33,063 nucleotides of DNA. Origin: Trichomonas gallinae (Eukaryota). Where the stretch lies: positions 1 through 33,063 of the forward strand of contig MRSU01011640.1 of the NCBI GenBank assembly GCA_008369845.1, written 5' to 3'. Numbering within the stretch: position 1 is the first letter of the stretch; each line of letters begins with the position of its first letter. Positions 8,246 to 32,151 of this stretch are shown here, in pieces. The notes beneath the pieces were generated by a model, which searched no databases, was not told where the DNA came from, and worked only from the letters and a program-made list of their open reading frames with translations. The position numbers were made by a program, and so were the translations under genes.

Positions 8246-9037
8246 TAATACTCTACTTAGAAATTTTGGAAATTAATTGCAAAGGCAAAATTTGATTAAT
8301 GGTTAATGCCATAGGCTATATTCCCTTAAAATATGTATATTATGGATACTGTTTGACTATATCATGATTATTAGATATAAGGAAATTATGTCTAGCAAAT
8401 TATGAAGCAGTAATGATGAATTAAATTTCACTACAGTGAGAATAGTGAAAATCAAATGAGGAAACTATGAAGTTGCTGATGAATCACTTATCAAAATTTC
8501 AAGATGTCTAAATCTTCTACTTGTTGAATGAATAAGAAGCGGTACTCAGTGGAAGACTGCCAACGTTAAATGCTCTAAGTTCAATTAAAGTTAGAGAGAA
8601 GTTTCTCAACCCTTGAGTCTTTCAAGCTAATGAAGATTTGAGTCAGTTTCCTTCCTTTGAGCTTTGTTGAGTTTTGAGTTTGTTGTATTTTTGGTTGCGA
8701 TAGAAGATCGCGGTCGCTGTCGACCGTGGTCAAGAATTTTTATTTTGCGCGTCTTTTTGCTCTGTGAGTTAGTTTGTTTTTGCTTTCTTTTTTTCCGCGC
8801 TGTTTTTTTTTTCTTTCAAAGATGAGTTATTCTTTTCAAGGAATAATCACATCTTTTCTTTTTGTTTGTGAAGGAGCAACTTCACAGAAACTGGCTATAG
8901 ACCAGAGTGTTAATTTATTCAAGTTAAAAAGATCATGTGCCGCAACCTTTATGCTGCGACGGATCTTTTTAATTTTGACATAAAACTAAGTTAACTGAAC
9001 CCTGAATAAAAAAATAACAAAACAATATATAAAAAAA

Positions 9038-14506: not shown

Positions 14507-15103
14507 TTGTCACGGAAGAAAGTTAAGAAGCCTGATAAGAAGGATTTTTTACAAATATTTGGGAACTTTAGTACCAAACCCTTCGATTGGGACCACTTAA
14601 ACCAAAATTCGCGACATGATATAATACAAATGTGCATTAAACTTAGAATACCTGTTAATATGGAGACAATGAGCAAACTAGATCTTATAAATGCTCTCAG
14701 ACAATACCCGAAAATGATTACTACGTCCAATTCTGTTTCCCCTTTCATGAATTCAGATCGGCTACACAAATATGAGTACCCACTGCTGCCAACATCCAGC
14801 AAAAACACACTCAATAATAATAAAAAGAAAACTGCAGCTGAGGAAAAAACCACAGAAGTTGAAGATTCAAATCCGACAAAATCAGATGAATCGTCAGACA
14901 AGAATGATGAGGAGCCAATTACCAAAAAACAAAGAATTACATCAAAAATTGCGTCAATATTTAGGCAATTTCTTCATTATTCCGGAGTTGTGTTGACATT
15001 TACGAAAAATCTAATCATACAGGAATGGGTGGCGATCTTATTTTACATATATATAATAGTAGTATTTGCTATATTAGTTTATTTTGTTATTGCTCCAGAA
15101 TAA
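14507..15103 (+). CDS. Hypothetical protein with a HeH/LEM-like helical motif and a C-terminal transmembrane helix (start uncertain)
   Basis: Open frame 14471-15103; FDWDHL...SRHDIIQMCIKLRIPV....SKLDLINAL resembles HeH/LEM/SAP motifs; hydrophobic WVAILFYIYIIVVFAILVYFVI tail; first in-frame ATG only at 14630. Confidence 0.6.
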   Translation: MSRKKVKKPDKKDFLQIFGNFSTKPFDWDHLNQNSRHDIIQMCIKLRIPVNMETMSKLDLINALRQYPKMITTSNSVSPFMNSDRLHKYEYPLLPTSSKNTLNNNKKKTAAEEKTTEVEDSNPTKSDESSDKNDEEPITKKQRITSKIASIFRQFLHYSGVVLTFTKNLIIQEWVAILFYIYIIVVFAILVYFVIAPE

Positions 15104-15646
15104 TTATTCAAGAATTATTTTGGCTATTTTCCATTGCATGTTATGTTATTTATATAAATGTTTGTTTATATTACGCATATATCATAATCAATTTCTAAGT
15201 AGTTCAAACAATTATTTTTCTTCAAATCCGTTTTATTAATACAGACAAATCTACACTTAATGGTGTAATATATTCATAGAATGGAACAACTTGACATTTC
15301 AGTTTTCCTGATTTACGTTTAACTTTTACAAAATATTTTCAAAATTAAAGAAAAAGAATGAAATATATAATGAAATAATATATAATTGAGTTCTTTTGAG
15401 CTTAGTGGCAAGTTTGCCATTGATTTTATTATGATTTCAAAGAAGGACTCAGCAAATTCTGCATTTTAAAAATAGTTCATATATATTTTGCGCGAAATTA
15501 TATTTTTCTACTAGGAAATGCTTTGTAATACCTATAGTGCTTCACATGATGATGACAAGCAAGTCGTAAAAAATATTTGACATTTTATTTTTTACACGTC
15601 AGATTTATATCTACACGTCAAAAATAAAAAAATGCCCGACGATAAA

Positions 15647-15665
15647 AACGGTTACTCGGCCATTA
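15647..15665 (+). promoter_or_regulatory. M3-like (Myb-type) core promoter element followed by a weak Inr-like CCATT, upstream of the intron
   Basis: AACGGTTA at 15647-15654 fits the T. vaginalis M3 consensus RRCSGTTD as I recall it; CCATT at 15660-15664; a duplicated TACACGTCA lies upstream at 15593 and 15612. Confidence 0.4.
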
Positions 15666-15682
15666 TTATACAAGTAGAAGCA

Positions 15683-15814
15683 GTATGTATACGCATATTT
15701 TTTCTTGATTAACCCGCAATGACGATAAAAATCCGTGTTGCTGCACACTGATGATAATGACGCCTGAGCGAAAGTAATCAAGAAAAAAAAATTAATTTTC
15801 AAACTAACACACAG
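15683..15814 (+). other. Spliceosomal intron (132 nt), trichomonad conserved type
   Basis: 5' splice site GTATGT at 15683-15688; exact 12-nt fused branch point/3' splice site ACTAACACACAG at 15803-15814, the T. vaginalis intron consensus. Confidence 0.88.
15715..15770 (+). ncRNA. Intron-encoded box C/D snoRNA, U18/snR18-like guide
   Basis: Terminal stem CGC (15715-17)/GCG (15768-70); box C ATGACGA 15719-25; guide TCCGTGTT 15732-39; D'-like CTGC 15741-44; C' CTGATGA 15748-54; box D CTGA 15764-67; enclosed by a 14-bp external stem. Confidence 0.75.
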
Positions 15815-16316
15815 AGTTTTCTTCTTATCTAATAATTTGCCAAATACAAGGCACTAACCTCATCCCAAGTGCTATAGCCACTCTTCTCATTAAAATGTAA
15901 CTATTCAATTTTATTTTTTTGATAATTTTACATGATATCAGTTGTACCATAGCTTCATTGTCATATAGTTCGATTCCACAAAGGGAAAAAGATCGAAAAC
16001 CTACATTTTTCAGTTAATTTGAAAATTGAATATTATTTGTTTTCATAGACTACTTGTGTGTAGATTAATGTAACATGCACTTATAAAATCTCATTTAGAA
16101 ATCTCATTTTGCTTATGACAATAAAATAGCTTCTGTGACTGGTTTTTATCATATGATGAATCATCGATGTGAAGGAAAATCTAAGCCATCATTCATATAT
16201 TAACAGTATATCAGGAATTCCATCAATATGGCTTAATATTCAATCTTAAAATGCATGAACTAATATGACTGCACCATAATCTTTCAAAAATTTCATTTTT
16301 CATGGTGCAATCATTT

Positions 16317-16785
16317 CTAAGCAGTATTGATGAAAATACCCTTTGCATTGACATCTATTCCACGAACTGAAAGATGAAGTTTAATTGTTACAAGGTGACA
16401 TTTTTTTAAAGCACAAATCAATGGGGTATTGTAGTATGTGCTTTTTTCGTTTATATCAATTCCATGAACTGTGAAAAGGGATTTGACAAGATATTCAAGA
16501 TATTTTGTAGCATGATTCAAAGCAGTTCTGGTGTTGTTCGACAACTGTGAGAACGAGTTTGACAACTCCGCGATGACTTTCTTCGAAAGCACAAATCCAA
16601 ACCGTAAAGTTCCATTCGTTTCTTGTGATAAAATCTCTTCTTGGAATAATGTAAAGAATATTTTGACAACTTAATGATGACCTCTTTTTGAAGCATAAAA
16701 CAAAGCTGTATATCTTGTAGAATATTTTGCGTTGATATCTATTTCAGGAATTGTGAGAAGTAGTATAACAGATATATGATCCACG
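16317..16785 (-). pseudogene. Ankyrin-repeat protein pseudogene
   Basis: Reads LLLTIPEIDINAKYSTRYTALFYASKRGHH*VVKIF...FTVWICAFEESHRGVVKLVL, then after a frameshift TALNHA...VKSLFTVHGIDINEK..YNTPLICA...HL..IKL.LSVRGIDVNAK; in-frame stop at 16671-16673; no start codon. Confidence 0.85.
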
Positions 16786-28304: not shown

Positions 28305-28499
28305 AATTTTTTATTAAAAAAACGTCCATTTTTTTTTCAAAAGTTTACATTGACAATATTTGTGCAAAAACGACACTTTACAATTATTGTTGACACTTTA
28401 CATGCACAAAATGCTGGGTATCACCCATTGACGTGTAAGACATCAAAACAGAACGAATAAAATTCGCAAATTGAATCTCATTCTGAGAAAAATCATTGT

Positions 28500-28553
28500 G
28501 TCAGCTCCCATTCTCAACGAGTGCTATTTCACTGTTTGAGAATGAGAGCTGAC
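28500..28553. repeat. Palindrome/hairpin with 18-bp arms
   Basis: GTCAGCTCCCATTCTCAA (28500-28517) versus TTGAGAATGAGAGCTGAC (28536-28553), 17/18 complementary; inner AGTG/CACT. Confidence 0.75.
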
Positions 28554-29064
28554 CTATATCGTATTCTTTAAAGTGTTAAATTTCGATGCAACCCCTGATT
28601 AAAATTCTGGCATTTGTAAATTTACAATCTCATTTATACATTGTCACTTTTCAAATATCTGACAATCTGACTATGTAAAATTTCCCTATTTGACAGGCAA
28701 AACAAGAGCAATCATAATCCAAATGCTATTTTAACAACTATTTTAAAAAATGCTCTCAAAAAAAAAAAAAAAAAAACTAAAAATAAAAATAAAAAAATTG
28801 GATTGATAAAATAATCGTTGAACGTCAAACGATAAAAATTAATATTTTATATAAAATTGGATTGGCTGTCAATAACATAGTCCATTTGTAAACTTAAAAA
28901 TTCAAAATTTCTGAGTACGCAATTGATTTTGCGTATGTCAAATGCGTATAGTCAATTATTTTGCGTACCTGGCTCATCGTTACCCGGTTCACTACACCAG
29001 AGATATATGCATGAAATAAAGTCGAAGTTTTATAACCTTATTTAATTTGAGTTCATTTTTCATA

Positions 29065-32000
29065 ATGATTCTGGCAACTCTTTTGCTGTTAAAGTTGCTC
29101 GATGAGAGGATAATAGAAGTTGATAACATGACCTTCTCCGTCGGTCCATCATCGAATGGAGCAACATTTATTTACTCTACAGAAAAAAATGTTATTATTC
29201 CAAAAGAAATAACATATGAAGATAATAGATACACAGTAAATGCAATAAAAATGAACCAAACAACTGAAATAGAGAGCATTTTTATTCATTATCTAATAGA
29301 TTCCATCAAAAATTTATATTATAACAAAATGCTTAATAATATTACTCTTGAAAATGGAATAAGCAAAATTGGGCAAGGTTGGTTTCAAAATATGGAATCT
29401 CCTTTTAACATTTCCATTCCAAATTCTGTGGCATCGATTGAAAATCACGCATTTGCTAATTCCTCCGTTTCATATGTAGATTTTGGCACTGGATTAACTT
29501 ATATCTATGAATATGCATTCGACTCTTCCAAATTAGTACAAATATTGCCAAGAACAAATTCAAATATCAAATTAATATCAGATTTTGCATTCAATAACTG
29601 CATACAGTTGCAAGATATAAAAAGCATACTATCAAACGTTCAAACCATTAATTCTTACGCATTCAATGGCACGATTTTATTAAATCAAAAAATAACATTG
29701 CCAGATACATTCCTTAATATAAGTGAAGGTACATTTGCATATTCCGGTATAAATGACATATATCTCGGCGAAAATTTAACATATATTGGTAAATATGCAT
29801 TTTATTCCTGTAATTCATTGAAAAATACAATAAAATATCCTCAAACATTATCAGAAATTGATGATTATGCGTTCTCCAATACTCCAATATCATCAATAAT
29901 GCCAAAAACCGAAAATAATATTACAAAATTTGGAATTGGCGTTTTCATGAACTGTTCAATGCTAACTGATGTTTTGGGAATGTTAACAGTAGCTCCAGCA
30001 ATCACAGACTACATGTTTGCAAACACCAATAACATCGAGCAAAACATTGAGCTACCACCAAGTATTAGGTCTATTGGTCAGCACAGTTTTGAAAATTGTC
30101 AAAGCATCAAAACACTCGGTTACACGTCTTATTTGCATCATATTGGTGACTACGCATTTGCTGGTTCATCAATTGAAGAAGTTACAAACATTTACTACAA
30201 TGATCTCGCAACAATTGGAAAATGCGCATTCATGAATTCTAAGTTGAAAACATTTGGTGAAATTTTGAACAATATGAAAGTAATCAATGAGTTCACTTTT
30301 GCAAATTGTTCTTTATTAGCGACATCAATGAATGTTGGTGCAAATACTGTTGAAATACAAGAATCTGCCTTTATGAACTCAGCAATTACATCAGCAAACT
30401 GCCGCAATGCTGTGACAAAAATTGGAAAATGTGCTTTTCAGAACTGTTTGAGATTATCGTCGATTTCTGGTAGTGGTTCTATCGTAGAAATCACTGAAGA
30501 CTGTTGCTTGAATTGCATAAACCTGAAATCATTCGAATTCTCAGACAAAACAAAGAAAATTTTTGATAGAGCATTTAAAAACACATCACTTTCTTCTATT
30601 GTTATTCCAAGCCTGGAATATCTCAGCACAAATGCATTCAGAGAAATGAGAGATTGTAAATTAGTGGATATTGGAGTTCCAAGCTATGAGTTCAAATATC
30701 TTGGAGATTTTACAAATGTCACGAAACTTGTTTTGAGAGTTGATGATGTAAAATTTTCTCTAAATGCATTTTTAAGGTCTAATATTCAAAGTTTGGAAAT
30801 TACTGCATCAAATAATGTGGAAATCGGAAACGGCGCTTTTAGAGATTCAAAGCTTGAAACCCTTAAAATTAATTTTGATGCGAAAGTAACAATTGGCCCT
30901 TATGCTTTTTCACACTCATTACTCAAAGATGTATCGTGTCAAATTACAAAAGCCGAAGATGGTGCTTTTGGATATACATATTTGAAAACAATTCCATTAA
31001 TTACAGATGCGATGGGAAAATTTTGTTTCATTAATACAACAATAGAAACAGCAATAATCGAGTGTGAATCTATTGGTGAATGTGCGTTCAAAGGATGCAC
31101 AAAACTCAAAAATATCAAATTTGGTAAAAAAGTTAAAAGTTTGAGTGAAGATCTATTTATGAATGCGGAAAAGATTGCAAAAGTTGAATTTGAGGAAGGT
31201 TGCCAAATAACAGAAATACCAAATTTCATGTTCTATAACTGCACAAAATTAACAGAAATAAGCGATTTACCCGAAAATTTAGAAAATATTGGCATTCGAA
31301 GTTTTGCTTATACAAACATTCCTTGTCCTGATTTCTCGAAATTGAAGCGTTTGAAGAAGATTAGTGACTCAGCATTCGACAAAGCTATAAGCAAAGGATC
31401 CCTTAAACTTCCATCAAGCTTAGAAAAATTATGTAATGGTGCTTTCTCAGATACAAAAATTAGCGGAGAAATAATTTTCCCTGAATCACTAAAATACATT
31501 GGCTCAAATTGCTTCGCTACATGCTATGGAATAACAAAAATCGATTTCTCAAAGTGTAGCAATTTAGAAACTATTGATTCATATGCATTTTTTAAGTGCA
31601 CTAAAATCGAAAATGAGCTGATTTTGCCTAAGAACATCAAAATGATCGGCGATTTTGCTTTTTACAATTGTCCGAATATGAGTGGAATCCTTTTGCCTGT
31701 TTCTTTGACGGAAATTGGAGGAAGTGCCTTTGAATATTGTTTGGAGTTTAGTGGAATATTGACAATACCTGAATCAGTGAAAACTATTGGAAAAAGAGCA
31801 TTCTATGGAATTGCAAAAATAACGCAAATACACTTCGAGTCAAAAGACGTCAACGTTGGCGATGAAGCATTTGCTGGTATGCATTTCATCTGCATGGCGA
31901 ACTTGCCTGCCAATTGCTCAAAGTTAGGCTTAAATGAGTCAAGATGTTACGAGAGCGACAACTTCGGAATATGGGGTACAAAACTCTCCGAAAATTGTAA

Positions 32001-32151
32001 CAAACTCCAGGAAGTTAAAAAGATTGTAATAATTTCTGTCCCCGTTGCTGCTTCGCTAATAGTTATTTTGATTATTGTAATTTTGTTGATTTGTTTCTGT
32101 AGGAAGCGCAATAAGCAGCAGATAGATATGACAGAAAAATTACTTCAATAA
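29065..32151 (+). CDS. BspA-like (TpLRR/LRR_5) leucine-rich repeat surface protein, type I membrane
   Basis: ATG 29065 after Inr TCATTTT; hydrophobic N-terminus; many IP.S...IG..AF..C..L repeats; TM segment IVIISVPVAASLIVILIIVILLICFC, then an RKR stop-transfer and a short tail. Confidence 0.93.
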   Translation: MILATLLLLKLLDERIIEVDNMTFSVGPSSNGATFIYSTEKNVIIPKEITYEDNRYTVNAIKMNQTTEIESIFIHYLIDSIKNLYYNKMLNNITLENGISKIGQGWFQNMESPFNISIPNSVASIENHAFANSSVSYVDFGTGLTYIYEYAFDSSKLVQILPRTNSNIKLISDFAFNNCIQLQDIKSILSNVQTINSYAFNGTILLNQKITLPDTFLNISEGTFAYSGINDIYLGENLTYIGKYAFYSCNSLKNTIKYPQTLSEIDDYAFSNTPISSIMPKTENNITKFGIGVFMNCSMLTDVLGMLTVAPAITDYMFANTNNIEQNIELPPSIRSIGQHSFENCQSIKTLGYTSYLHHIGDYAFAGSSIEEVTNIYYNDLATIGKCAFMNSKLKTFGEILNNMKVINEFTFANCSLLATSMNVGANTVEIQESAFMNSAITSANCRNAVTKIGKCAFQNCLRLSSISGSGSIVEITEDCCLNCINLKSFEFSDKTKKIFDRAFKNTSLSSIVIPSLEYLSTNAFREMRDCKLVDIGVPSYEFKYLGDFTNVTKLVLRVDDVKFSLNAFLRSNIQSLEITASNNVEIGNGAFRDSKLETLKINFDAKVTIGPYAFSHSLLKDVSCQITKAEDGAFGYTYLKTIPLITDAMGKFCFINTTIETAIIECESIGECAFKGCTKLKNIKFGKKVKSLSEDLFMNAEKIAKVEFEEGCQITEIPNFMFYNCTKLTEISDLPENLENIGIRSFAYTNIPCPDFSKLKRLKKISDSAFDKAISKGSLKLPSSLEKLCNGAFSDTKISGEIIFPESLKYIGSNCFATCYGITKIDFSKCSNLETIDSYAFFKCTKIENELILPKNIKMIGDFAFYNCPNMSGILLPVSLTEIGGSAFEYCLEFSGILTIPESVKTIGKRAFYGIAKITQIHFESKDVNVGDEAFAGMHFICMANLPANCSKLGLNESRCYESDNFGIWGTKLSENCNKLQEVKKIVIISVPVAASLIVILIIVILLICFCRKRNKQQIDMTEKLLQ

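Follow-up and report, generated by a model that had tools for sequence, protein, structure and literature searches.

The U18 family of box C/D snoRNAs (U18, snR18 and SNORD18; RF00093 in clan CL00047) carries a D′ guide with the core UCCGUGUU, directed at an A within the LSU rRNA sequence GAAACACGGA. This target corresponds to Am649 in yeast and to Am1313 in human, by the old numbering (PMC8307265, PMC3511168). The yeast RNA is described as guiding both Am649 and Cm650 (PMC8307265), the human and Arabidopsis counterparts as guiding the equivalent A (PMC3511168), and counterparts for the same site are described in Entamoeba, Plasmodium and Trypanosoma (PMC3542256). Members of the family have 4 nt between the D′ and C′ boxes and are intronic in yeast, within EFB1, and in Neurospora, where the counterpart again uses a D′ guide (PMC9351541, PMC2780460). 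In Entamoeba histolytica the counterpart Me-Eh-LSU-A785 is about 62 nt long, with a D′ guide to the same site and a 4-nt D′–C′ spacer; it is intergenic and its C and D′ boxes are canonical (PMC3542256).

Introns are almost absent from trichomonad genes, with about 48 confirmed per genome in T. vaginalis (PMC13548475). Its type A introns combine GTATGT, ACTAACACACAG and a stem that leaves 24–47 single-stranded nt (PMC13548475, PMC6260720, PMC6679479), and in trichomonads one fused motif serves as both branch point and acceptor (Hudson et al., 2019). A recent survey describes 33 type A-like candidates in T. vaginalis, 11 of them validated by poly(A) long reads, and places several newly found introns in 5′ UTRs (PMC13548475). 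The known type A introns lie in protein genes and contain AT-rich hairpins. Neurospora and animals have non-coding genes that host intronic C/D RNAs; those of the UHG/gas5 type and of Neurospora clusters I–V are spliced, have only short ORFs and carry C/D snoRNAs in their introns (PMC2780460). For T. vaginalis itself, Chen et al. (2009) described short C/D RNAs whose guides lie close to the 5′ end (PMC2817412), and one of their eight may be the U18 counterpart.

The stretch of DNA analysed here (the window, 33,063 nt) is parabasalid, since its uL13 protein has 5xy3_O as best match at E 8e-119, followed by the next non-duplicated entry at E 5e-53. We take 5xy3 to be the T. vaginalis 60S ribosome. 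The ORFs of the window are close-packed and unspliced, and a search for tRNA genes in the window found none. Elsewhere in it, a 1043-codon frame (29020–32151, − strand) presumably, as judged by eye, encodes a BspA-type leucine-rich-repeat membrane protein, and an ankyrin-repeat gene at about 16100–16770 (− strand) is broken by stops and frame changes. Short contigs with loose ends from run X1 map to this ankyrin region, as expected of a multi-copy family. Another run X1 contig of 410 nt matches the upstream gene at 14520–14929 with 6 differences, a similarity indicating that a close relative is present in that run.

We found the following predicted features, all on the forward strand.

15632–15682 (+): predicted exon 1 region, with a spliced ORF of 22 codons starting at ATG 15632; no Pfam match.
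15683–15814 (+): predicted trichomonad type A spliceosomal intron of 132 nt; GTATGT, 114 nt and ACTAACACACAG, equal to the consensus in Table 2 of PMC13548475.
15683–15688 (+): 5′ splice site GTATGT, exact.
15698–15711 (+): 5′ arm of the 14-bp intron stem, the perfect complement of 15775–15788 and part of the minimum-energy fold.
15715–15770 (+): predicted box C/D snoRNA, 56 nt, closed by CGC/GCG and in kink-turn register, as judged from its boxes, the SNORD18 alignment and shuffles.
15715–15717 and 15768–15770 (+): terminal stem, CGC and GCG.
15719–15725 (+): C box ATGACGA, one change from RUGAUGA.
15730–15739 (+): D′ guide AATCCGTGTT, followed by G at 15740; T15736 is the D′+5 position; complementary to parabasalid LSU AACACGGAUU in 15 of 18 rDNA loci.
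15741–15744 (+): D′ box CTGC, one change from CUGA, aligned to the SNORD18 D′ box in the Rfam alignment.
15749–15754 (+): C′ box TGATGA, perfect, 4 nt (ACAC) after D′ as aligned to SNORD18.
15764–15767 (+): D box CTGA; the distance to the predicted branch A is 39 nt and to the 3′ splice site 47 nt.
15775–15788 (+): 3′ arm of the 14-bp intron stem; with this stem formed, the splice sites are separated by 41 single-stranded nt when the fold is computed with the splice signals held open.
15803–15814 (+): 3′ splice site fused with the branch point, ACTAACACACAG; A15807 is the predicted branch A; the only exact copy in the window.
15815–15906 (+): predicted exon 2, up to a poly(A)-like signal in which TAAA (15891–15894) is followed by C/AATT and a run rich in T; the two strands of the window hold 8 composites of this kind, this one included.

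The element thus resembles U18/SNORD18 in guide core, target A, D′–C′ spacing and intronic position. It differs in being 56 nt long, as against 71 model positions, in a guide 5′ end that fits parabasalid rRNA, in its C box UGACGA and D′ box CUGC, in a model score below gathering, and in a host apparently without protein. With the Entamoeba RNA it shares its small size, the D′ guide to the same site and the 4-nt spacer; with the RNAs of Chen et al., its shortness and the guide near the 5′ end. Compared with known T. vaginalis type A introns, the present one has the predicted snoRNA as its stem loop. Compared with the UHG/gas5-type and Neurospora hosts, the transcript predicted here, for which splicing is likewise a prediction, has a single 132-nt intron and exons a few tens of bases long, and the lineage has about 48 confirmed introns per genome.

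The first-pass annotation of this DNA had proposed a compact U18 orthologue of about 55 nt. Its boxes are where it had placed them, AUGACGA towards the 5′ end of the element and CUGA towards its 3′ end. The 3′ arm of the CGC/GCG stem directly follows the D box, leaving a 3-nt bulge, A-A-U, in agreement with the established kink-turn geometry of C/D terminal stems. Of the internal boxes, C′ is perfect and D′ deviates at its fourth base, where the canonical A belongs to the sheared G–A pair. GC content is 48% in the element versus 24% in the rest of the intron.

The covariance model check that had been suggested for the orthology claim came out below threshold. SNORD18 (RF00093) aligned to 15714–15771 over its full length, model positions 1–71, with 17.9 bits and an E-value of 1.9 in an 801-base search, against a gathering score of 41 bits. 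At gathering level no Rfam family was found anywhere in the window, an E-value scan of the whole window did not list the element, and in the 801-base E-value scan other C/D models also aligned on the SNORD18 match site. The SNORD18 score by itself is thus weak support. Because it lies below gathering, we file the element as working like U18 and regard orthology as likely.

The D′ guide provides a more specific comparison. We fetched 18 rDNA loci of relatives with part of a published trichomonad primer; its site is some 400 nt upstream of the target, and locus choice therefore did not select for the target itself. AATCCGTGTT pairs over 10 of 10 positions with AACACGGAUU in 15 of these loci, which all read GTCTTGA-AACACGGATT-AGGGAG and fall into four groups that are 79–86% alike in the initial 1.2 kb of LSU; two of these loci are repeats from a single contig. 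Among the 10 loci that reach the SSU end, a second trichomonad primer is exact in 9 and has one change in the tenth. The remaining three loci are 51–63% alike to the 15 and read AACACGGACC (two) or AACACGGGGC (one). The predicted LSU reading at this site was therefore found as the first-pass annotation had given it, in these 15 loci.

The eukaryotic LSU consensus of Rfam reads GAAACACGGACCAAGG at this site and the SNORD18 consensus guide reads GGUCCGUGUUU. The rRNA has GGACC in the Rfam consensus versus GGAUU in the 15 loci, and the guide has GGUCC in SNORD18 versus AAUCC in the window. The change from GG to AA in the guide is therefore matched by a change from CC to UU in the rRNA and all 10 pairs are kept, so that guide and target have changed together in a two-base compensatory change. 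Across the whole SSU, 5.8S and LSU of locus L014, the duplex at the target is the best one for this guide, at −14.5 kcal/mol, with the next at −12.8 kcal/mol. That next-best site is the SSU stretch CAACACGGG, near gene position 1000, with which the guide pairs over 9 nt including one G–U; the same pairing is present in L004, L010, L011 and L016–L018. This SSU stretch is a possible minor second target.

In box C/D RNPs, the nucleotide opposite the fifth position upstream of the D or D′ box is the one methylated. T15736, five from D′, faces the A of AAC-A-CGGAUU, a position fixed by the Rfam LSU alignment. The D′+5 rule is thus predicted to select the A equivalent to yeast Am649 (25S A649) for methylation. 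Both the U18-type guide and the target A had been named beforehand; the pairing of at least 10 nt to LSU GAAACACGGA in relatives' rRNA, in the D′+5 register, agrees with them. The same annotation had raised a second guide before the D box, for which we found no support: the spacer between C′ and D is 9 nt and has no consistent 9–10 nt target. In the 12 loci scanned, at most 7 Watson–Crick pairs end at D, at sites that differ between loci. LSU helix 69–71 and the Am807 region were considered as targets and neither fits, and this spacer probably guides nothing.

The element had been called intronic with no splice sites given. We scored type A introns as a GTAYGT 5′ site and a fused ACTAACACAYAG 3′ motif 41–178 nt apart, and 15683–15814 carries exact signals, perfect at 18 of 18 bases. 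Their 114-nt separation slightly exceeds the 42–104 nt of the 11 newest validated introns. The GTATGT/ACTAACACACAG pair is unique on either strand of the window, and the 12-mer ACTAACACACAG occurs once exactly and once with one mismatch, where 0.07 occurrences would be expected at up to one mismatch. The motif CCGTGTT is present in none of the 30 introns of the Hudson table (22 type A and 8 type B). Given the boxes, the guide and these splice signals, we consider it highly probable that a U18-type C/D snoRNA lies inside a trichomonad type A intron.

Within 270 nt upstream of the one-mismatch copy of the 3′ motif, ACTAACTCACAG at 8773–8762 (− strand), inspection by eye showed no GTAYGT. This copy follows a row of four consecutive hairpins (8740–8990, − strand) downstream of a transporter-like gene; the row has a z-score of −4.70, and 0 of 200 shuffles were as stable. 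No Rfam match was found over this region, which is possibly an unknown RNA or the end of a mobile element.

The perfect 14-bp stem noted earlier is present at 15698–15711/15775–15788, as the only perfect 14-bp inverted repeat in the window with a loop of up to 150 nt, and it closes a 63-nt loop containing the snoRNA. The intron fold has a z-score of −2.7. Of 100,000 dinucleotide-shuffled versions of the intron body, 1,688 contained a perfect 14-bp inverted repeat; the repeat seen here is weaker evidence than it looks because half of it is poly-T/poly-A. Stems in long T. vaginalis introns bring the splice sites to within 25–44 nt (Hudson et al., 2019), and 22 type A introns of the Hudson table have 24–47 single-stranded nt, with a median of 38.5. 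The 41 nt left here falls within the roughly 25–45 nt looked for in an intron-shortening stem. It also falls within the T. vaginalis range, so the stem is better explained first as an ordinary shortening stem of long trichomonad introns.

The stem had been read as an external processing stem of the yeast type, which is therefore not its first explanation. The external stem of yeast U18 reportedly has a role in processing, according to work attributed to Villa et al. in 2000, and by analogy the present stem perhaps has a second role of this kind. In an unconstrained fold, the 5′ splice site also pairs with 15693–15698 in a 6-bp hairpin (15683–15698, +) that competes with the first pair of the 14-bp stem and may be due to chance.

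The same stem is central to a reading in which the snoRNA is real and made without splicing: an RNase III-like or other nuclease would excise it at the 14-bp stem from a transcript of its own, and the splice signals would be relics or serve a side route. Precedents come from Giardia, whose snoRNAs are described as intergenic with a 3′ processing motif, from the intergenic Entamoeba U18 (PMC3542256), and from the splicing-independent paths that exist in yeast (PMC9351541). Contigs of three sequencing runs showed no joints, and since none of them extends over 15000–16300 they speak neither for nor against splicing. Relic splice signals would be expected to decay, and the motifs here, perfect at all 18 bases, therefore count against relics, as does a stem that leaves the typical 41-nt spacing. 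We regard this route as quite improbable.

We next consider whether the element could be a dead or chance copy, that is, an ordinary structured intron with a snoRNA-like loop or a decayed second copy of a U18 gene that is retained elsewhere. The sub-threshold Rfam score and the one-base deviations in both the C and the D′ box are consistent with such a copy. When the intron body was dinucleotide-shuffled 100,000 times and scored by criteria set after the element had been seen, a relaxed C box with a D box and a 3-bp stem arose 937 times, and the same combination with a 10-nt Watson–Crick rRNA guide at D or D′ arose 16 times. Scanned in the same way, both strands of the window gave two matches, the element and a low-complexity one at 1735–1628 (− strand). 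The rarity among shuffles, the higher GC content relative to the flanking intron, and a guide that meets the conserved U18 site in D′+5 register while following a lineage-specific rRNA change all argue against a dead or chance copy, which we consider very improbable.

The absence of homologues from the metagenome and viral contigs could also be counted in favor of a dead copy. A search for the snoRNA-plus-intron pattern found no match among viral contigs and none among metagenome contigs; parabasalid sequence other than rDNA is scarce in these collections, and the blank searches therefore say little. Looser patterns matched one prokaryote-genome locus and 14 viral-contig loci, without D box or intron context, and we set these aside as chance matches in coding DNA. 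Scans for rDNA with the trichomonad primer found 0 in viral contigs and 0 in genome contigs.

Turning to the host, the longest ORF across the predicted junction 15682/15815 is the one of 22 codons from ATG 15632. In T. vaginalis, UAAA lies 10–30 nt before transcript ends; presumably the cleavage motif is to be read at C/AATT near 15906. The exon 1 region contains AACGGTT (15647–15653), which we take to resemble the M3 motif, one of the promoter motifs reportedly described by Smith et al. in 2011, and which would put the start near 15660, after ATG 15632. The stretch from 15547 to the 5′ splice site contains no initiator TCAY(T/A). Two copies of ACACGTCA, separated by 19 nt (15594–15620), lie immediately before the predicted host gene, and a third is on the other strand (28429–28436) near a 24-bp hairpin at 28500–28553; this sequence is possibly a promoter element. 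Two hairpins upstream of the host (15387–15525, +) were considered as an H/ACA RNA and rejected, with a z-score of −0.91 and no ANANNA hinge (H box).

With the snoRNA and intron both real, the host could still be protein-coding, through the 22-residue micropeptide, through a 44-residue product if the acceptor lay 2 nt downstream (giving a 44-codon ORF), or as the remains of a decayed gene. The frame from ATG 15632 is indeed open to the 5′ splice site, with the intron in phase 0, and each of the 30 T. vaginalis introns tabulated by Hudson et al. lies in a protein gene. Neither exon frame matches Pfam at E-values up to 10, however, and the best Atlas score for the exon frames, 0.82, is at chance level. 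The shifted acceptor is disfavored by the trichomonad fusion of branch point and acceptor.

The 5′-UTR introns newly found in T. vaginalis (PMC13548475) offer a further precedent for a coding host. Here, the next ORF on the + strand starts about 970 nt on, past the poly(A)-like site and with the broken ankyrin gene on the opposite strand in between, which makes a 5′-UTR intron unlikely; moreover, T. vaginalis 5′ UTRs are described as typically 5–20 nt. A protein-coding host of any of these kinds is, in our judgment, unlikely. The 22-codon ORF and the poly(A)-like end near 15906 therefore point to a host that is likely non-coding, the likeliest reading of the predicted transcript by about two to one or better.

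Taken together, we favor, with a probability of roughly 0.7, a reading in which splicing of a short and likely non-coding host transcript would release the predicted U18-type snoRNA, which would then guide 2′-O-methylation of the A649 equivalent. RNA polymerase II would produce a transcript of about 250–350 nt ending near 15906. In it, the 14-bp stem would loop out the snoRNA and hold the splice sites 41 single-stranded nt apart, the spacing kept by long trichomonad introns. Following splicing and debranching, exonucleases would digest the intron as far as the C/D kink-turn, which the core proteins protect, a route described for yeast and mammals, where splicing and debranching are likewise followed by trimming to the C/D core (PMC9351541). 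In the resulting snoRNP, the D′ guide would pair with the pre-rRNA and fibrillarin would methylate the nucleotide opposite D′+5.

One paper considers intronic snoRNAs highly unlikely in Trichomonas, and unpublished data on 'intronic snoRNAs' in T. vaginalis are mentioned by Simoes-Barbosa et al. (2008). The words snoRNA, nucleolar and non-coding do not occur in the 2026 intron paper, nor does snoRNA in Hudson et al. (2019). In a search of openly accessible literature, no title or abstract opening among the matches listed described a parabasalid intronic snoRNA. The RNA family and intron-borne snoRNAs are already known, unlike the arrangement predicted here in a nearly intron-free lineage.

We tentatively propose, at somewhat less than even odds, that parabasalids may keep a hidden class of introns that carry only a snoRNA within tiny non-coding hosts and have escaped intron catalogues compiled from protein genes. 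The intron stem would then double as a processing stem, and supplying ancient rRNA guides, U18 among them, would be one reason why these nearly intron-free cells have retained the spliceosome. The locus also offers a clean example of guide–rRNA coevolution and bears on the mobility of ancient snoRNAs (PMC3511168). It provides a concrete sequence that makes a class of non-coding snoRNA introns in trichomonads testable, and it bears on why intron-poor eukaryotes retain splicing.
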